This document shows positions 13,430 through 31,129 of a DNA stretch of 32,675 nucleotides, piece after piece. Source of the stretch: a virus (taxonomy: Duplodnaviria > Heunggongvirae > Uroviricota > Caudoviricetes); the IMG/VR virus record IMGVR_UViG_2663763159_000003, positions 1-32,675 of that record. One strand, 5' to 3'. Positions within the stretch are counted from its first letter, which is position 1, and each line of letters begins with the position of its first letter. A program made the position numbers and the translations under genes. The notes beneath the pieces are model-generated. The model searched no databases. It was not told where the DNA came from and worked only from the letters and a program-made list of their open reading frames with translations.

Positions 13430-13780
13430 TCAATTGATGCGTTCGCGCGCTGTTTTTGCTTTATGGCAGGGCCAGCACAGACTCTGCAGGTTACTGTCTG
13501 CATCCGAGCCACCATGAGCTTTCGGAATGATGTGGTCCACAGTTCTGGCTTCAACGGCTCTCCCATTGCGCAGGCAGTTCTGACACAGATCATTATCACG
13601 CTTCAGTATGCGCGCACGTATGGCATCCCATTTCGAGCCATAGCCACGCTGGTGGCGACTCAGTCCGCGCTGATGCTGTACCCATCCTTCGCCACGATGT
13701 TTATCGCAGTAACCAGAACTGTCTGTGGTTGTACCTGCACATCCACGTTTACGGCAGGCTCGTGGGATTAGTGCTGGCAT
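13430..13780 (-). CDS. HNH endonuclease (terminase-associated)
   Basis: 116 aa with Cys pairs, DHIIP.AHGG and CWPCH motifs. Confidence 0.85.
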   Translation of the reverse strand: MPALIPRACRKRGCAGTTTDSSGYCDKHRGEGWVQHQRGLSRHQRGYGSKWDAIRARILKRDNDLCQNCLRNGRAVEARTVDHIIPKAHGGSDADSNLQSLCWPCHKAKTARERIN

Positions 13781-16635: not shown

Positions 16636-16711
16636 TGGTGCTGGTTAACGGACTTGAACCGCTACCCATTCGCTTACAAGGCGACCGCTCTACCATTGGA
16701 GCTAAACCAGC
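16636..16711 (-). tRNA. tRNA-Thr(UGU)-like, 76 nt with encoded CCA
   Basis: Hand-folded cloverleaf: acceptor GCUGGUU/AACCAGC, D-arm GCUC-CAAUGGUA-GAGC, anticodon loop CUUGUAA, T-arm AGCGG-UUCAAGU-CCGUU. Confidence 0.6.
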
Positions 16712-16716
16712 ATATT

Positions 16717-16791
16717 TGGCGGGACAGCGTGGACTCGAACCACGATAAGAAGGTTAACAGCCTTCCGTAATGACCTTTATACGACTGACCC
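16717..16791 (-). tRNA. tRNA-Asn(GUU)-like, 75 nt, deviant D-arm (possibly degenerate)
   Basis: Anticodon arm GAAGG-CUGUUAA-CCUUC, T-arm CGUGG-UUCGAGU-CCACG, acceptor with one U-U mismatch, CCA encoded. Confidence 0.45.
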
Positions 16792-16882: not shown

Positions 16883-17428
16883 CTATGCTACATGTTTAAT
16901 TTTCTCTACACGTTTCCGGTTTTTAAACGCACTATCCAGAACCGGGTAAATCATAAACAACGAGGCATTGAGGATTTCGTCAACTTCCCGTCGACAGGTT
17001 GCGAGCGATGGTTTTTGAATGCGCCCGCCGCCCCGGCATAACATCTTGCGAGGTCTTGCGACGCGATGATAGTAAGATGCAATGGCGTGCTTGGAAGAGC
17101 CGTGGGCGTAGTAGCTGAGGAGGATGCCAAAGGCTTTCTTGTCAATGTACATGACGGAATCGACGACCTGAGAAATCAACATTCCATCATCATCATTACA
17201 CATTGGCCTTGTCATAACTCTTCCCGGCTCTACGCTCTCCATGAACTTAGCTATTACGCTGCTCATGCGCTTTTCCAGACGACCTGAATAAACCCATGCG
17301 CCCCACAGTTCAAGCCAGCCATTCAGCCACTCGTGCTGTTCTTTGGTGAGGTTTAGTTCTCTTATGCCCATGCGCCTTCTCCCTTGTGATCTGGAATGGT
17401 TTTTACTGAGAACGTCATGCGGCCTCAC
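16883..17428 (-). CDS. Late-gene antiterminator Q (non-λ Q family)
   Basis: 181 aa; WGAW...C.DDD...YY pattern shared with E. coli prophage Q homologues as recalled; position between ninG and lysis genes. Confidence 0.75.
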
Positions 17429-18029
17429 TTCTGCTGTTTCGCAGGTCTTTGAGTTTCTGCTGATACTCCGCCTTGATGGCCCTGCACTCTTCGACAGTCC
17501 AGCGATGGCGGTTATGGTTTGATTCGATTTCGTCTACTGCTTCCTGCCCGATGCGGCTAATCAGTTCGACGCGATACGGAACGAGATTTCCGCTTTTGTG
17601 CTGGTTGCACACCACGCATTGCTTGTGAATATTGCGTTCATCAAATCGGAGTTGAGGTGCCGCAGCAGTTGTCCGGTAATGTCCGGCATCCCACTGAGCA
17701 GACGTGAGCGTTCCGCAAGAGATACATGGTAAGTCGCGGTCTCTTTCTCTGATGAAGGCGTTTACGGCTTGTTGGGCTTGTTTAATCCAGTAACTGCGGG
17801 GCTTTAAGGCGAGTTTTCTAATCTTAAGTTTATCTTTCTGTTTCTGCTCCTCTCGTCGTCGTTTCTTCTCTGCTGCTTTTTCCGCTTTTTCGCGTTCTTT
17901 ACTTCGTCGTTCGAGTGCTATCTTGGTTCCACACTCTGGAGAGCACCACCACTGATTAGCGAATGCAGGGTGAAACCATTCCCGACATTCATCGTTTTTA
18001 CATCGTCTTCGCGCTGGTTTAGCCATCAT
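17415..18029 (-). CDS. ninG: NinG (Rap) recombination-associated endonuclease
   Basis: 204 aa, Cys-rich ends and Lys/Glu-rich linker, matches λ NinG as recalled. Confidence 0.9.
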
Positions 18030-18231: not shown

Positions 18232-18368
18232 AGGTGAGCCGTGTAGTTGAAGGTTTTTACGTCAGATTCTTTTGGGATTGGCTTGCGTTTATTTCTGGAG
18301 CGTTTCGTTGGAAGGTATTTGCAGTTTTCGCAGATGATGTCGGTGATACTTCGTCGCTGTCGTCTCAT
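18186..18368 (-). CDS. ninE: NinE
   Basis: Start taken at internal Met ([19 protein letters not shown]...), matching λ NinE as recalled. Confidence 0.75.
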
Positions 18369-18805
18369 GCCGCCCTGTCTCCCCATCGCGCTTTCCATTC
18401 GAGAGCCAGTCGCGCTTCGTCCGACCACTTAACGCCACGCTCTGTACCGAATGCCTGTATAAGCTCTAATAGCTCCGCAAATTCGCTTACACGCATCCTG
18501 CTGGTTGACTGGCCTATTACCACAAAGCCATTCCCGGCAAGGTTAGGAACAACATCCTGCTGCTTTAATGCTGCGGTAAACACACACTTCCAGCTTTCTG
18601 CATCCAGCCAGCGACCATGCCATTCAACCTGACGAGAGACGTCACCAAGGCAAGCCCAAAGCTTTCGATTCTGGTCTAAGCTGCGGTTGCGTTCCTGAAT
18701 GGTTACTACGATTGGTTTGGTTGGGTCTGGAAGAATTTGCTGTACCGCGTGAATAGCGTTTTGCTGATGTGCTGGAGATCGAATTTCAAAGGTTAGTTTT
18801 TTCAT
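18365..18805 (-). CDS. ninB: NinB (Orf) recombination mediator
   Basis: Start at [15 protein letters not shown]..., matches λ NinB as recalled. Confidence 0.9.
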
Positions 18806-21537: not shown

Positions 21538-22245
21538 ATGGTTCAGAATGAAAAAGTGCGCAAAGAATTCGCCCAGCGGCTAGCGCAAGCCTGTAAAGAA
21601 GCTGGTCTTGATGAACATGGTAGGGGTATGGCCATAGCCCGTGCCCTTTCTCTTTCGTCCAAAGGCGTTAGCAAATGGTTTAATGCTGAGTCTTTACCGC
21701 GTCAGGAAAAAATGAATGCGCTTGCGAAATTTCTAAACGTTGATGTTGTTTGGCTTCAGCACGGCACTTCGTTAAATGGAGCGAATGATGAAGATACTCT
21801 TTCATTTGTTGGCAAATTAAAAAAAGGGTTAGTGCGCGTGGTTGGTGAGGCAATTCTTGGTGTTGATGGTGCCATCGAGATGACCGAAGAGCGCGATGGG
21901 TGGCTCAAGATTTATAGTGATGATCCAGATGCCTTTGGTCTTCGTGTGAAAGGAGACAGCATGTGGCCCAGAATAAAATCAGGAGAATATGTACTCATTG
22001 AGCCTAACACCAAAGTATTCCCGGGGGATGAGGTGTTTGTCAGAACCGTTGAAGGACACAACATGATCAAGATTCTTGGCTATGACAGAGATGGAGAATA
22101 CCAATTTACAAGCATCAACCAGGACCACAGGCCAATAACGTTACCTTATCATCAAGTAGCAAAGGTGGAGTATGTGGCTGGTATTCTGAAGCAATCTCGT
22201 CATCTGGATGACATCGAGGCAAGGGAGTGGCTGAAAAGTTTGTGA
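21538..22245 (+). CDS. cI: CI repressor (N-terminal HTH, C-terminal LexA/S24-like autopeptidase)
   Basis: 235 aa; C-terminal region with G.SM and K motifs typical of S24 peptidases; divergent from cro. Confidence 0.85.
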   Translation: MVQNEKVRKEFAQRLAQACKEAGLDEHGRGMAIARALSLSSKGVSKWFNAESLPRQEKMNALAKFLNVDVVWLQHGTSLNGANDEDTLSFVGKLKKGLVRVVGEAILGVDGAIEMTEERDGWLKIYSDDPDAFGLRVKGDSMWPRIKSGEYVLIEPNTKVFPGDEVFVRTVEGHNMIKILGYDRDGEYQFTSINQDHRPITLPYHQVAKVEYVAGILKQSRHLDDIEAREWLKSL

Positions 22246-22368
22246 CTTCAAGTACGCGACAAGCCCCGTCCTTCAGGGCGTGGAGGATGTCAAAATAACT
22301 TTAAATAACACACCACCAACATTTAACACATTGAATTAAAAAACCTACAATATTTGATGAGAGGCGTT

Positions 22369-22689
22369 ATGGAACCGGTCAAAATTAAACCATCTGTGGA
22401 TTATATTGAAACCTATGCGGACTTCGCTAGTTTTGCTCCACTACCGGGAGCGGAAAAAAATCTCATTTGTATACATTTTATCGCAAACAAGTCAATACCT
22501 GCGGTACTATCCCAAAATGATATACCAGATCAACCAGGTAGAGCGAATATGCAGATAGGCTCTGTAAATGAACTCAATCAGCAATGCACTGTGATAATGC
22601 CAATGGCACAACTAAAGGCTCTTCAAGAGAATATAGTTCTTCTTTTCGAACAATTAGAGGCACAAAACTCTAATGGAGCGAAGTCGTAA
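22369..22689 (+). CDS. Hypothetical soluble protein, first gene of the rex-slot cassette
   Basis: Start taken at MEPVK with GAGAGG RBS; stop overlaps next start (TAATG). Confidence 0.6.
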   Translation: MEPVKIKPSVDYIETYADFASFAPLPGAEKNLICIHFIANKSIPAVLSQNDIPDQPGRANMQIGSVNELNQQCTVIMPMAQLKALQENIVLLFEQLEAQNSNGAKS

Positions 22690-23372
22690 TGCAACAACCG
22701 GAAGAAGTAGGTGATTTAACTATTACTTACAAAACATCAAGTATTGTTAAACCACTGCAAGTTTCCCTGAATAACGTTAATACTCGCGATTTCATGATGT
22801 TCATGGAAACAGCAAAAGGTAATCTGTTTTCTACGCCTATTTCCTCTTATTCACCAAAAAACATGGTGGATGATGCGACCAATTCCCAGCTAACTGCTAC
22901 AATCGTAGATAAAGGAGGGGTTGCCGATTGTAAAGGACAATCTAATGTTATCCCACCGTACGAGGAAACTCCTATACAGGGAACCGCAATGTCCGATTTG
23001 AGCAGAAACGAAATACAGGCACTTCTGAAGGCAAATAAAGCTGAAGTGGATGCAGTGGCCTCAAAAATGCAGGCTGATATGGCCAAATGGCGTGAACTAA
23101 TGGCTTCAGATATAAAGGAGATGAAGCATTTAGTTGTTACTCAGCACGAACAAATCAACAGTCGTCTGGACATACAATCGAGTAGAATTGAGAGTGCCCT
23201 TGACTCCCAATCAAAAAAGATCGATGCAGCTCTTTCTGTTCAAGAGGCAAAGTTAGAAGGTAAGCTTAGTGATGTTAAGCTTGATATAATCAAATGGGCC
23301 CTTGGCTTGCCAGCATTAGCATTTACTGTATATAAAATCTACGGATTGCTCTCTGGAGTCTCAACCCCCTAA
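22689..23372 (+). CDS. Hypothetical tail-anchored coiled-coil membrane protein, second gene of the rex-slot cassette
   Basis: 227 aa; Gln/Ser/Lys-rich heptad-like region residues ~105-200; C-terminal hydrophobic helix IIKWALGLPALAFTVYKIYGLLSGV. Confidence 0.7.
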   Translation: MQQPEEVGDLTITYKTSSIVKPLQVSLNNVNTRDFMMFMETAKGNLFSTPISSYSPKNMVDDATNSQLTATIVDKGGVADCKGQSNVIPPYEETPIQGTAMSDLSRNEIQALLKANKAEVDAVASKMQADMAKWRELMASDIKEMKHLVVTQHEQINSRLDIQSSRIESALDSQSKKIDAALSVQEAKLEGKLSDVKLDIIKWALGLPALAFTVYKIYGLLSGVSTP

Positions 23373-23822: not shown

Positions 23823-24095
23823 ATGTCCAGAAAAACAGAATTTAAAGGCACCGCAGCTTCTCGCCGTAGAGCTCGTCGTGCAAACCTGCAAAGTCAGGAG
23901 GCGATCAGCTCTGACAAACTACACAGGCCAACCCCTTCACGAGTGGTCTTACAATGCAAACGCAAACCAGTAATGAGAGCAGAAGTAATAACACTGACAA
24001 CGTTGACCAGAAAATATGAAGGCTCAACTTGTCTTCCAAATGTAGCCATTTACGCGGCAGGCTACAGGAAATCCAAACAGCTGACAGCAAGATGA
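23823..24095 (+). CDS. N-like antiterminator with arginine-rich motif
   Basis: Start at ATG 23823 with GGGAGG RBS; N-terminal GTAASRRRARRANLQ arginine-rich motif; position after pL/nutL. Confidence 0.7.
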   Translation: MSRKTEFKGTAASRRRARRANLQSQEAISSDKLHRPTPSRVVLQCKRKPVMRAEVITLTTLTRKYEGSTCLPNVAIYAAGYRKSKQLTAR

Positions 24096-24153: not shown

Positions 24154-24240
24154 ATGGAAGAAGAATTTGAAGAGTTCGAAGAGCATCCTCAGGATGTGAT
24201 GGAACAATACCAGGACTATCCGTATGACTGCGACTATTGA
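24154..24240 (+). CDS. Small acidic 28-aa ORF (λ orf28-like position)
   Basis: ATG with GAGGTGAG RBS; overlaps ral start; too short to judge. Confidence 0.3.
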   Translation: MEEEFEEFEEHPQDVMEQYQDYPYDCDY

Positions 24241-24424
24241 TAAGAATCAATGGTGTGGACAATTCAAGCGATGCAATGGATGCAAGCTGCAATCGGAATG
24301 CATGGTTAAGCCTGAAGAAATGTTTCCTGTAATGGAAGATGGGAAATATGTCGATAAATGGGCAATACGAACGACGGCAATGATTGCCAGAGAACTTGGT
24401 AAACAGAACAACAAAGCTGCCTGA
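24224..24424 (+). CDS. ral: Restriction alleviation protein Ral
   Basis: 66 aa, matches λ Ral as recalled. Confidence 0.8.
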   Translation: MTATIDKNQWCGQFKRCNGCKLQSECMVKPEEMFPVMEDGKYVDKWAIRTTAMIARELGKQNNKAA

Positions 24425-24650: not shown

Positions 24651-24821
24651 ATGCAACAGTTCGCTATTGCAGGGGCGGCATCGGTTCGCCCTTTCAACCC
24701 GATTTTATCGGTACAGCATTCACGAAAAAACATTTTAACCGGAGCAGACTTTAAACAACCAAGAATGAAAAGTTTGCTCGAAAAGCTTTGGGATATTTTG
24801 AAACAACAAGGCCGTCCATGA
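24651..24821 (+). CDS. cIII: CIII-like protein
   Basis: 56 aa starting MQQFAIAGA..., resembling the λ CIII N-terminus MQYAIAGW; AAGGAG RBS. Confidence 0.6.
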   Translation: MQQFAIAGAASVRPFNPILSVQHSRKNILTGADFKQPRMKSLLEKLWDILKQQGRP

Positions 24822-24902
24822 GTTTTACAGATAACTGGTCAGACGAAGAATTCATTCGTCAGATGAACAAAATGCTCAATCAGCACAAAGAACAGGAGAA
24901 AG

Positions 24903-25214
24903 ATGATGATTCTGACTCTGAATGATAAGCGTGAAATATCGCAAATAATCGCAAGTTTTACTGATGAAGATTACGAGCGAATCAACAGTGAAGTTGATCG
25001 CCTCTGCAAACGTTGCGACCCAATAAGCGAAATGCTTCGCTCATATAAACCAGATGAACACACTAAGGACGCTATCGACTGGCTGGAAGATGATGACTGT
25101 AACTATCAGGAAAAAGCCGCTGAATGGTTCTGGGATGCAATAACCGAAAGAGTTAAGGCTGAATATGCCTTCGCAATATTTAAACGCAGACACATTTTTG
25201 GAGAAGCAGCATGA
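24903..25214 (+). CDS. Hypothetical acidic 103-aa protein upstream of recT
   Basis: ORF with AGGAG RBS; stop overlaps recT start; a 34-aa ORF at 24819..24923 partly overlaps its 5' end. Confidence 0.55.
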   Translation: MMILTLNDKREISQIIASFTDEDYERINSEVDRLCKRCDPISEMLRSYKPDEHTKDAIDWLEDDDCNYQEKAAEWFWDAITERVKAEYAFAIFKRRHIFGEAA

Positions 25215-26122
25215 GCAATATCGTTGAATTCGTTAAACAGCAGGAGCAGTTATTCTGCGGAGCATTGACTGAACAGACGGTGACATGGGCTAAGGAAAGC
25301 CAGTTTGCAATTCAGTATTTCCAGAAAAACGATTACCTGGCTAAAACAGCACTGGCAAATCCAACCAGCGCACAGAACGCCATCATCAATGTTGCGGCGA
25401 TCGGCATCACCTTAAACCCTGCAAGCAAACTGGCTTATCTGGTTCCGCGCGATGGCATGGTTTGCCTTGATATCAGCTATATGGGATTGCTCCATATTGC
25501 AATGGAGTCTGGTGTTATCTCATGGGGTCAGGCAAAACTTGTTCATGCTAACGATACCTATGAGTCAAACGGGCTTGATAAAGCACCAACCCATAAATAC
25601 AACGCCTTCGGTGATCGTGGTGATATCGTTGGCGTTTACTGCACAGTTAAGACGCCGGCAGGTGATTATCTAACGGAAGAGATGAGTCTGGCTGAAATTG
25701 AGGCTGTAAGGAAAACAAGCAAGGCAGCATTCAGCGATAAAGGACCATGGGTAAATCACTGGAATGAGATGGCGCGAAAGACGGTCGTAAAGCGTGCAAG
25801 CAAGTATTGGCCTAAGGCATCACGTCTTGATAGCGCTATTCACGTACTAAACGAAGAAGAAGGTGTATGGACTGAACCAGTTATGCCGCACAAATCAGAG
25901 GAAGATATCCGCGAAGATGAACGGAAACGCCAGCAGGAAATAACGGATAAAGCACAACTTCTTTGTGATGAAATGGCTCAGGCAGAAAACATGGATGATT
26001 TGAAGCGATATTTTGCAGAAGCATATCGCCTGACATCTGGAATGAAATTGCAGCAGAACGTACAAGCCATTTACGCAGAATGCAAAGCGAAACTGGAGGT
26101 TGCCAGTGAGCAAACTGTATGA
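25211..26122 (+). CDS. recT: RecT-family single-strand annealing recombinase
   Basis: 303 aa; GPWVNHWNEMARKTVVKRASKYWP resembles the RecT signature GPWVTHWEEMAKKTAIRR. Confidence 0.85.
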   Translation: MSNIVEFVKQQEQLFCGALTEQTVTWAKESQFAIQYFQKNDYLAKTALANPTSAQNAIINVAAIGITLNPASKLAYLVPRDGMVCLDISYMGLLHIAMESGVISWGQAKLVHANDTYESNGLDKAPTHKYNAFGDRGDIVGVYCTVKTPAGDYLTEEMSLAEIEAVRKTSKAAFSDKGPWVNHWNEMARKTVVKRASKYWPKASRLDSAIHVLNEEEGVWTEPVMPHKSEEDIREDERKRQQEITDKAQLLCDEMAQAENMDDLKRYFAEAYRLTSGMKLQQNVQAIYAECKAKLEVASEQTV

Positions 26123-26588
26123 AATTGCCAATGAATACGCAAAATTGATGGATTCAGATTTAGAACCAGAGATGATTGCTGACACAATAGAAGGCATGGA
26201 AGGAGAATTTACCGATAAAATAGAGCAACTTCTTTCCGTCATTAAAAATGAATCTGGTTATGCTGAACGCCTCAAGGAAGAGGCAAAGTCACTGAATGAG
26301 CGAGCCGCAGTAATTCAAAATAAGATTGAGAGCATCAAATCATATATAGCGTCATCGCTTGAAATGGTTGGCAAGAAAAAGATTCGAGCAGGTATTCACC
26401 AGGTAACAATCCGCAAACCGTCAGAAACTGTAGAAATCATCGACTCAAGCGCCCTTCCTCCTGAATACGTTGAGTTTGAAACGACAATTAAAGCCGACAA
26501 ACTGGCAATCAAACACCAACTAAAAGCAGGAATAAATATCCCCGGCGCTCAACTCAAAGTTGGGAAACCTTCACTTCTTATCAAATAA
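26100..26588 (+). CDS. Siphovirus Gp157-like protein
   Basis: 162 aa; coiled-coil N-terminal half; non-ATG start (TTG 26100 or GTG 26106) overlapping recT end. Confidence 0.55.
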   Translation: MPVSKLYEIANEYAKLMDSDLEPEMIADTIEGMEGEFTDKIEQLLSVIKNESGYAERLKEEAKSLNERAAVIQNKIESIKSYIASSLEMVGKKKIRAGIHQVTIRKPSETVEIIDSSALPPEYVEFETTIKADKLAIKHQLKAGINIPGAQLKVGKPSLLIK

Positions 26589-26599
26589 CGGTATCGACT

Positions 26600-26914
26600 A
26601 TGAAAAAGACTCCATGGGAGAAATGGGAAGTCGATTTCTTGCGCGAGGTAGCGGCGACAATGCCAGTTGAAGTTATCGCTGAAAAACTGGAAAGGACTGA
26701 AAAAGCAGTAATGGCGAAAGCAACAAGGATTGGCGCTGACATTGTTAGCCGACTTCGTGGAAGACGATGGACAAGAGCCGAAGTATCACTTTTCGGTAAG
26801 TTCTCCGCAGAAGAAATAGCAATTGCAACCTGCCGCTCAATTTATTCAGTAAGAGCTATGCGATACAAGCTAAAAAAACTCGATGAAGAAAGAGCAGGCA
26901 TACGAATAAATTAA
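26600..26914 (+). CDS. Hypothetical 104-aa protein (possible DNA-binding)
   Basis: ORF only. Confidence 0.55.
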   Translation: MKKTPWEKWEVDFLREVAATMPVEVIAEKLERTEKAVMAKATRIGADIVSRLRGRRWTRAEVSLFGKFSAEEIAIATCRSIYSVRAMRYKLKKLDEERAGIRIN

Positions 26915-29862: not shown

Positions 29863-30081
29863 ATGTACTTGACACTTCAGGAGTGGAACGCACGCCAGCG
29901 ACGCCCAAGAAGCCTTGAAACAGTTCGTCGATGGGTACGCGAGTGCAGGATATTCCCTCCTCCGGTTAAGGATGGAAGAGAGTATCTGTTCCACGAATCA
30001 GCGGTAAAGGTTGACTTAAATCGACCAGTAACAGGTAGCCTTTTGAAGAGGATCAGAAATGGGAAGAAGGCGAAGTCATGA
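29863..30081 (+). CDS. xis: Excisionase
   Basis: 72 aa, matches λ Xis as recalled. Confidence 0.95.
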   Translation: MYLTLQEWNARQRRPRSLETVRRWVRECRIFPPPVKDGREYLFHESAVKVDLNRPVTGSLLKRIRNGKKAKS

Positions 30082-31129
30082 GCGCCGGGATTTACCCCCT
30101 AACCTTTATATAAGAAACAATGGATATTACTGCTACAGGGACCCAAGGACGGGTAAAGAGTTTGGATTAGGCAGAGACAGGCGAATCGCAATCACTGAAG
30201 CTATACAGGCCAACATTGAGTTATTTTCAGGACACAAACACAAGCCTCTGACAGCGAGAATCAACAGTGATAATTCCGTTACGTTACATTCATGGCTTGA
30301 TCGCTACGAAAAAATCCTGGCCAGCAGAGGAATCAAGCAGAAGACACTCATAAATTACATGAGCAAAATTAAAGCAATAAGGAGGGGTCTGCCTGATGCT
30401 CCACTTGAAGACATCACCACAAAAGAAATTGCGGCAATGCTCAATGGATACATAGACGAGGGCAAGGCGGCGTCAGCCAAGTTAATCAGATCAACACTGA
30501 GCGATGCATTCCGAGAGGCAATAGCTGAAGGCCATATAACAACAAACCCTGTCGCTGCCACTCGCGCAGCAAAATCAGAGGTAAGGAGATCAAGACTTAC
30601 GGCTGACGAATACCTGAAAATTTATCAAGCAGCAGAATCATTACCATGTTGGCTCAGACTTGCAATGGAACTGGCTGTTGTTACCGGGCAACGAGTTGGT
30701 GATTTATGCGAAATGAAGTGGTCTGATATCGTAGATGGATATCTTTATGTCGAGCAAAGCAAAACAGGCGTAAAAATTGCCATCCCAACAGTATTGCATG
30801 TTGATGCTCTCGGAATATCAATGAAGGAAACACTTGATAAATGCAAAGAGATTCTTGGCGGAGAAACCATAATTGCATCTACTCGTCGCGAACCGCTTTC
30901 ATCCGGCACAGTATCAAGGTATTTTATGCGCGCACGAAAAGCATCAGGTCTTTCCTTCGAAGGGGATCCGCCTACCTTTCACGAGTTGCGCAGTTTGTCT
31001 GCAAGACTCTATGAGAAGCAGATAAGCGATAAGTTTGCTCAACATCTTCTCGGGCATAAGTCGGACACCATGGCATCACAGTATCGTGATGACAGAGGCA
31101 GGGAGTGGGACAAAATTGAAATCAAATAA
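30059..31129 (+). CDS. int: Integrase (tyrosine recombinase)
   Basis: 356 aa, matches λ Int as recalled; start overlaps xis end. Confidence 0.95.
   Translation: MGRRRSHERRDLPPNLYIRNNGYYCYRDPRTGKEFGLGRDRRIAITEAIQANIELFSGHKHKPLTARINSDNSVTLHSWLDRYEKILASRGIKQKTLINYMSKIKAIRRGLPDAPLEDITTKEIAAMLNGYIDEGKAASAKLIRSTLSDAFREAIAEGHITTNPVAATRAAKSEVRRSRLTADEYLKIYQAAESLPCWLRLAMELAVVTGQRVGDLCEMKWSDIVDGYLYVEQSKTGVKIAIPTVLHVDALGISMKETLDKCKEILGGETIIASTRREPLSSGTVSRYFMRARKASGLSFEGDPPTFHELRSLSARLYEKQISDKFAQHLLGHKSDTMASQYRDDRGREWDKIEIK

Follow-up and report, generated by a model that had tools for sequence, protein, structure and literature searches.

Introduction

In a survey of 325 lambdoid phages by Zheng, Casjens, Davidson, Amundsen and Smith (Genome Res 2025; PMC12315714), 84 of 246 recombination (Rec) modules are described as lacking a nuclease, those of P22 and HK620 included. 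The P22 class, which combines an anti-RecBCD protein with a single-strand annealing protein (SAP) and has no nuclease, accounts for 46 phages in Table 1 of that survey. Phage HK140 is named there with a SAP-4 annealase and a 'MuGam' anti-RecBCD protein, and with neither a nuclease nor a single-stranded DNA-binding protein (SSB). Here, we analyzed a recombination module in the IMG/VR virus record IMGVR_UViG_2663763159_000003 (32,675 nt; this whole stretch is the window in the following), in which a small acidic protein, here called X, a RecT annealase and a Gp157-like protein are encoded between positions 24,903 and 26,588. The module turned out to be of the HK140 type, and X is probably a Gam-type inhibitor of the host RecBCD enzyme.

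Two of the closest known modules, lambda Red (gam-bet-exo) and gamL-rec-exo of phi80, occupy the same operon position, downstream of cIII. The window shares with them the order of a small acidic inhibitor-type gene, a gene for an annealase of the RecT/Beta superfamily and a tightly linked third gene, and the core of its RecT is 60% identical to that of phi80 Rec. In contrast to both, the third gene of the window encodes Gp157 instead of a YqaJ/lambda-Exo nuclease. The C-terminal tail of RecT is unrelated to that of the phi80 protein (18% identity), and X lacks an N-terminal motif common to Gam and GamL. The arf-erf-abc1-abc2 module of P22 resembles the window in having no phage exonuclease and in combining an annealase with RecBCD-directed accessories; a small Arf-like ORF upstream and a gene of the Abc1 family (phrog_323) downstream are further common traits. 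However, the P22 annealase is Erf whereas that of the window is RecT, P22 has no Gp157, and Abc2 modifies RecBCD in P22 whereas a Gam-fold protein would presumably block it in the window.

A nuclease-less module of the HK140 type

X, RecT and Gp157 form a tightly coupled block on the + strand (Table 1), and all three ORFs were confirmed. The stop codon of X overlaps the start of recT in the sequence ATGA, and Gp157 starts 17 nt inside the 3′ end of recT, a packing that is for coupled translation. The first-pass annotation of this DNA had placed a RecT-family annealase in the lambda Red slot, with a Gp157-like ORF overlapping its 3′ end and an acidic 103-residue protein upstream. The gene order cI, N, ral, cIII-like, X, RecT, Gp157 ... 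xis, int confirms the slot, PF05565 matches the Gp157-like protein over its full length, and the upstream neighbor is indeed acidic (103/102 aa, pI 4.65, net charge about -9).

The same annotation saw no exonuclease gene on either side of this pair, and named an adjacent recognizable exonuclease as the finding that would overturn its view. Such a gene was looked for and none was found. Among the some twenty ORFs of the early-left (pL) operon, there was no match to a nuclease family or to an SSB family in Pfam or PHROGs. Seven proteins of the lambda-Exo/YqaJ and RecE/DUF3799 kinds served as phmmer queries against every ORF in the six frames of the window, and none gave a match at E ≤ 10. In the RefSeq annotation of the whole identical prophage, the only other DNA enzymes are NinB, NinG and an HNH protein adjacent to the terminase genes. 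Likewise, no exonuclease of the YqaJ/lambda-Exo or RecE/DUF3799 type adjoins the annealase in 17 related RecT-Gp157 loci. The module is not of the two-component type of lambda Red and RecET, in which an exonuclease is paired with an annealase. Instead, it fits the nuclease-less lambdoid Rec modules of the P22 functional class (anti-RecBCD plus SAP), because RecT is present together with a Gp157 that Zheng et al. label MuGam-type and a Gam-fold X, nuclease and SSB families are unmatched, and the block is 98% identical to that of HK140.

This identity to HK140 (gp42-gp41-gp40) spans 3.2 kb, in which gene content and gene order agree. The block is also found in phages mEpX1, Gally, Kapi1 and Louie, among other phage records, and of 5,426 complete E. 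coli genomes, 208 carry at least 80% of its 3.2 kb. The order X, RecT, Gp157 and p104 (a basic protein encoded downstream) is kept in all 78 IMG/VR loci. The architecture persists in other genera at 57-80% Gp157 identity, where no Exo or RecE was detected nearby, and is also kept where X is only 35% identical. The X-RecT-Gp157 block, at about 70% Gp157 identity, also occurs on three short contigs (L105, L108 and L115; about 2-5 kb) that bear the labels Actinomycetes, Micromonospora and Streptomyces; the presence of this enterobacterial block in them is most likely assembly contamination.

The missing exonuclease is therefore neither unusual nor unexplained, and not a new observation, since the HK140 module has already been catalogued and modules without a nuclease make up about a third of the lambdoid ones (84 of 246). 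The module of the window and that of HK140 are essentially the same DNA and of the same functional class (anti-RecBCD plus annealase, no nuclease). They differ in how they are read: the HK140 entry of the survey does not count gp42, the counterpart of X, as a member, whereas X is here proposed to be Gam-type, which gives a module of at least three genes. What is new is the Gam-fold assignment of phrog_3486, the constant company of a Gam-slot gene with RecT-Gp157, and the partner-specific tail of RecT.

X as a candidate Gam-type inhibitor of RecBCD

X has no match in Pfam or NCBIfam, and its PHROGs family carries no assigned function. The family is small: 1.8 billion proteins yielded 47 representatives, the most distant of them at about 30% identity; a scan with the single protein returned only copies of 98-100% identity. 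An AlphaFold model built from a 31-member alignment is all-helical (pLDDT 91.2, pTM 0.77). Compared with 48,164 chains, this model had GamS as its single top match, the same protein as predicted by gene position, so that the predicted fold of X is GamS-like. The interpretation in the first-pass annotation is thus partly right, since its suggestion that one of the unassigned neighbors may be a host-nuclease inhibitor fits the location of X in the gam slot and its predicted fold. In size and acidity, X (102 aa, pI 4.65, charge -9.3) is close to GamS (98 aa, 4.99, -9.9) and GamL (93 aa, 4.70, -7.4), in line with the size (about 95-100 aa) and the strong, DNA-mimic type of acidity expected of Gam-type proteins.

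The genomic context of X agrees with this assignment. In every readable relative, X opens the recombination module and in most cases overlaps the gene that follows, often with a cIII or kil gene just upstream. Ten divergent relatives could be read beyond X, and in each of them a gene for RecT or a RecE-like/DUF3799 protein follows X directly. The orders observed were X > RecT > Gp157 (with X 35% identical), X > RecT > YqaJ/Exo, X > ExoVIII(DUF3799) > RecT and X > ExoVIII > a 189-aa protein, and the X > RecT > YqaJ trios mirror gam-bet-exo. Salmonella phage SEN22 (L089, 3498-5196) has the last of these orders, with an X of 95% identity, then the ExoVIII/DUF3799 gene and the gene of the 189-aa protein (phrog_11517). 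In Table 1 of the survey, SEN22 is listed with an SSB and a nuclease, but with no annealase and no anti-RecBCD protein (PMC12315714). Since SEN22 carries X, the protein is not recognized in that classification.

The interchange of X with known inhibitors was counted at 20 species-level genomic loci with Gp157, of which 17 were informative. The gene directly upstream of RecT was X in seven of these, phi80 GamL in five, lambda-type Gam in four and another acidic ORF of 107 aa in one, and none of the 17 carried two of these genes, so that X, Gam and GamL are mutually exclusive. In phage Dewey, a true Gam, with 63% identity to the lambda protein, stands at the position of X, followed by RecT, a gene of the Gp157 family and a D5-like regulator gene, and the RecT core of Dewey is 97% identical to that of the window. 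The deviating 107-aa ORF (L119, 904-1227) comes from a Lonsdalea metagenome-assembled genome, where it lies in the Gam slot upstream of RecT-Gp157. It matched neither Pfam nor the profiles of X, Gam and GamL, and may represent a fourth type of inhibitor.

At the level of sequence, the support is marginal. X and Gam have the motif DDDxxFQE in common, at an equivalent position. Several other comparisons weigh against a Gam-type X. The alignment of the X family with that of Gam in hhalign reached an E-value of 8e-4, with unrelated controls at 0.13-0.3, but at a probability of 24-25% and over only 26 columns centered on this motif. With the Pfam Gam profile (PF06064), neither X nor any protein of its 31-member alignment gave a match at E ≤ 10. 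The GamL profile gave E = 0.18 in hhalign, which is in the range of the negative controls. A clear relationship joins Gam and GamL (E = 9e-8), by way of an N-terminal helix with the motif MNAYxxQDRIEAQxW, which is absent from X and where X does not align, and the N-terminal region of the X model consists of two shorter helices instead. In lambda Gam, this N-terminal helix plugs the single-strand channel of RecB (PMC5218532). The absence of the motif, together with the two shorter predicted helices, suggests that X may bind RecBCD differently or have another target.

We do not claim sequence homology between X and GamL given the profile result, despite an E-value of 0.0066 over 85 columns in a single-sequence run. 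P22 Abc2 was also considered and showed no similarity to X (E = 0.11), and sequence searches of the PDB with X, the X-family profile and Gp157 gave matches at chance level only.

X could alternatively be some other small helical accessory that merely shares the shape of a helical bundle with GamS, for example a cofactor of the Arf or Abc1 kind, an inhibitor directed at some other host nuclease (SbcCD, for instance), or a protein with an anti-defence role. The lack of significant homology to Gam or GamL fits such a protein, as does a preprint that reports recombination loci to be hot-spots where diverse manipulators of RecBCD and genes against immunity occur (10.64898/2026.07.10.737580). We nevertheless regard this as a rather unlikely explanation: the top structural match among all the chains was the very protein that gene position had predicted, X alternates strictly with Gam and GamL in one slot, and it has the size and charge of GamS. 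Moreover, X accompanies RecT-only, RecT plus Exo and RecE-type (SEN22) modules, so that it is not specific to one recombinase. Combining fold, position, interchangeability, size and charge, X is probably the third Gam-type inhibitor of RecBCD, next to lambda Gam and phi80 GamL.

The C-terminal tail of RecT tracks its partner

By profile, the annealase is a member of the RecT family. It matched PF03837 over residues 31-217 (E = 2.7e-32, 112.4 bits, cut-off 24), TIGR00616 of NCBIfam (82.4 bits, cut-off 52.65) and phrog_148 (E = 1.8e-92). Its identity to phi80 Rec drops from 60% in the core to 18% in the tail, which comprises approximately residues 223-303 (25877-26122 of the window). The same division holds between the two sets of alleles. 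RecT cores are 50-60% identical across the Gp157- and Exo-partnered groups, while the tails are 71-95% alike among Gp157-partnered alleles, 51-79% among Exo-partnered alleles and 18% between the groups. The tail is thus a swapped domain that groups by the downstream partner, Gp157 or Exo. In lambda Beta, the C-terminal domain is the partner-binding domain (as cited in PMC12315714). By analogy, the tracking of the partner by the RecT tail suggests that Gp157 is the physical partner of RecT in the place of the exonuclease.

Gp157 as a possible end-binding protein

Gp157 matched PF05565 with residues 3-160 on profile positions 1-162 of 162 (E = 2e-38, 132 bits, cut-off 28.6) and phrog_253 (E = 2.7e-54), which PHROGs labels 'Mu Gam-like end protection'. 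The protein of HK140 is called MuGam-type in the survey (PMC12315714). The first-pass annotation named Gp157 as a partner of RecT and missed the end-protection and anti-RecBCD labels that the protein already has in these sources. In an AlphaFold2 model of Gp157 (pLDDT 80.7), the N-terminal half forms a long hairpin of helices and the C-terminal domain is small and rich in beta structure.

Gp157 and Mu Gam, the Ku-like end-binder, are similar in length. In hhalign, their C-terminal 60-63 columns aligned colinearly with weak E-values of 0.04-0.12, and the aligned residues follow the weakly matching pattern RxPSxx[IV], KxAI, G[IV]xGxxxKxG. The genes of both proteins adjoin a gene of phrog_323, and their functional label in PHROGs is the same. 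In contrast, they belong to separate families in Pfam (PF05565 and PF07352, with no cross-hit in either direction) and PHROGs (phrog_253 and phrog_491), the profile match is not significant, and Mu Gam is not paired with an annealase. Attempts at more diverse Gp157 profiles did not change this, as scans of IMG/VR gave mostly close relatives and the resulting hhalign comparison was again non-significant (E = 0.12). Foldseek against a viral library returned relatives of Gp157 and uncharacterized proteins, and nothing named Mu Gam.

Genes of this family have also been reported from phages of Firmicutes, where orf157/Gp157, Mu-Gam-like, DUF1351 or DUF2483 genes lie beside erf-ssb or sak4 (PMC8093625). 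As in the window, the Gp157-family gene directly adjoins the annealase gene, in the place of an exonuclease. The two arrangements differ in that the Firmicutes gene is located upstream of Erf or Sak4 and usually accompanied by an SSB gene, whereas in the window Gp157 comes after RecT, a Gam-slot gene is present and an SSB gene is absent.

The place of Gp157 raises the question of whether it is itself a cryptic exonuclease of an unrecognized fold, which would make the module an exonuclease-annealase pair in disguise. It sits at the exo position and overlaps recT, the modelled C-terminal domain (beta-beta-beta-alpha-beta) is loosely like a PD-(D/E)XK core, and H98, D113 and E123 are invariant in the family alignment. 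Weak Foldseek matches to two actinophage proteins of the PD-(D/E)XK/RecB-like kind (E = 0.026 and 0.24) point the same way. Against this, the conserved strand of the family alignment has no (D/E)xK motif, and no nuclease family of Pfam, PHROGs or NCBIfam matched Gp157. The best colinear similarity of Gp157, although weak, is to the C-terminal half of Mu Gam, a non-nucleolytic end-binder (PMC12315714), and both PHROGs and Zheng et al. class Gp157 as MuGam-type. A nucleolytic Gp157 is therefore improbable. Of the two Foldseek matches, the one at E = 0.026 is a PD-(D/E)XK protein (398 aa) from Tsukamurella phage TIN4, and the one at E = 0.24 is a RecB-like exonuclease from Arthrobacter phage KellEzio; they could be Gp157-like domains fused to nucleases, or reflect shared helices only.

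Every RecT-Gp157 module among the 17 informative loci also has a Gam-slot gene, which makes it unlikely that Gp157 is just a redundant blocker of RecBCD. A tentative extension, to which we give limited credence, is that Gp157 is more than another anti-RecBCD protein: a non-nucleolytic, end-binding adaptor, dedicated to RecT in the stead of the Red/RecET exonuclease, that docks on the Gp157-specific RecT tail and either loads RecT at ends or recruits host resection, and that it forms together with RecT and the Gam-fold X family a conserved three-part recombinase ('Gam-type / RecT / Gp157') across the Enterobacterales.

Proposed mode of action

On balance, we lean towards a complete and functional module of the HK140 type that works without an exonuclease of its own. 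On induction or infection, transcription from pL would yield the product of a small ORF upstream of X, then X, RecT, Gp157 and p104. X most likely would neutralize RecBCD of the host, which would spare rolling-circle tails and the ends of linear phage DNA. RecT, whose activity is that expected of its family, would anneal single-stranded DNA. Gp157 most likely would bind and protect double-strand ends like Mu Gam and work with RecT through the tail of the latter, and p104 would be a DNA-binding accessory like Abc1 or Mu gp9. Oligonucleotide recombination by Beta and RecT proceeds independently of Exo. Because of this, and because the modules of P22 and HK620 are nuclease-less, the single-stranded DNA for RecT could come from host resection of the RecQ/RecJ type or from gaps at replication forks, and not from a phage nuclease.

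That the module is instead a decayed remnant, which lost its exonuclease gene and whose RecT is non-functional or served by the exonuclease of another prophage such as Rac RecE, is very improbable: although modules of one or two genes are called 'somewhat suspect' by Zheng et al. (PMC12315714) and the window is a prophage rather than a tested phage, the same block occurs in the isolated phages named above, other genera, at 57-80% Gp157 identity, retain its gene order, its overlaps and its intact ORFs, in no case with a nuclease, and RecT has a tail type dedicated to pairing with Gp157. All three alternatives, concerning X, Gp157 and the module as a whole, are less likely than a functional module without an exonuclease.

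Flanking genes and prophage setting

Downstream of Gp157, p104 is probably a fourth, accessory member of the module. It follows Gp157 in all 78 IMG/VR loci, and its family, phrog_323, is also matched by P22 Abc1 and by Mu gp9, encoded just upstream of Mu gam, to which p104 is similar in BLASTP (E = 5e-5). In an Enterobacter locus (L113), a true Abc1 homolog replaces p104 after Gp157. The annotation of p104 as P22 Abc1 in phage Gally was not upheld, as BLASTP finds nothing between the two; both match phrog_323, so the relationship is remote and at profile level only. Corresponding genes lie at 2483-2782 in L003, 2471-2755 in L097 and 4487-4795 in L113. An Abc1-like gene adjoining a (Mu)Gam-like gene recurs in unrelated phages.

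The small ORF ahead of X, of 35 codons, is present in 85 of 107 related loci. It matched phrog_17766 (E = 5e-16) and phrog_2123 (E = 3.5e-10); the latter contains HK75 Gp33, with whose N-terminus it has 16 of 21 residues identical (E = 2e-12). Its first 16 residues (MSFTDNWSDEEFIRQM) are the start of HK75 Gp33, and a weak match to P22 Arf (SDEEFI, E = 4e-4) was also seen. According to a 2026 preprint, HK75 Gp33 triggers P2 OLD and is a candidate for manipulating RecBCD. A role as a small recombination or RecBCD-related cofactor is possible.

Escherichia coli carries the window as a lambdoid prophage at att-lambda. The 3.2 kb that were compared match E. coli strain 50579417 at 100% identity, and in this strain the integrase gene of the prophage abuts ybhC, while the far end lies near ybhB and bioA. 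The pL operon reads, on the + strand, cI, two further genes, N, ral, the cIII-like gene, X, RecT, Gp157 ... xis, int, and then ybhC. On its upstream side, the recombination module is bordered by the cIII-like gene, which is also the case in lambda, P22, SEN22 and Midgardsormr38, and cIII precedes the homologs of X in some relatives. Directly 3′ of cI, at the position of lambda rexA/rexB, two co-oriented genes (22354-23372, +) encode proteins of 111 and 227 aa, of which the larger contains a coiled coil and ends in a hydrophobic stretch. The prophage probably expresses them as an exclusion or defence pair. Chi sites are unremarkable in the 32.7 kb, with two on the + strand and three on the - strand, a count far below that of the phages with 'no Rec module, high Chi'.

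Table 1. Positions of the recombination module and of other features in the window.
Feature	Position	Strand	Product and remarks
HNH endonuclease	13430-13780	-	beside terminase genes; RefSeq annotation of identical prophage
tRNA-Asn and tRNA-Thr	about 16636-16791	-	between Q and lysis cassette; annotation of identical prophage
NinG	17415-18026	-	Rap-like; RefSeq annotation of identical prophage
NinB	18365-18805	-	Orf-like recombination mediator; RefSeq annotation of identical prophage
cI	21538-22245	+
N	23823-24095	+	PF25694
ral	24224-24424	+
cIII-like gene	24651-24821	+	56 aa; CDS in identical E. coli prophage; HK140 gp43 named 'CIII anti-termination'
35-aa ORF	24818-24925	+	unannotated, Arf-like; between cIII-like gene and X
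X	24906 (or 24903)-25214	+	102/103 aa, acidic, predicted all-helical; phrog_3486; first module gene, ATGA-coupled to RecT
RecT	25211-26122	+	annealase, 303 aa; core 1-222 and partner-specific C-terminal tail of about 80 residues
Gp157	26106-26588	+	160 aa, Sipho_Gp157 family; GTG after GGAGG, TTG at 26100 also possible
p104	26600-26914	+	104 aa, basic, two helix-turn-helix-like repeats; phrog_323, E = 2.8e-20
DUF5405, DUF2737, DUF7446, Ea22 and DUF551 genes		+	between recombination block and xis/int
xis and int	30059-31129	+

Significance

The nuclease-less RecT module is in itself ordinary. If X is Gam-type, it would be the third sequence family in the class of lambda Gam and phi80 GamL, and modules of the HK140 type would carry two RecBCD-related genes as a rule. 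Modules of the SEN22 type would then no longer count as having no anti-RecBCD protein, which would change the published classification of several lambdoid Rec modules. X would also provide a new small blocker of RecBCD for recombineering or for probing defences with RecBCD as their guarded target (retron Ec48 and P2 OLD, for example). Finally, the switch of the RecT tail between Gp157 and Exo offers a testable handle on what substitutes for the exonuclease in about one-third of lambdoid recombination modules.

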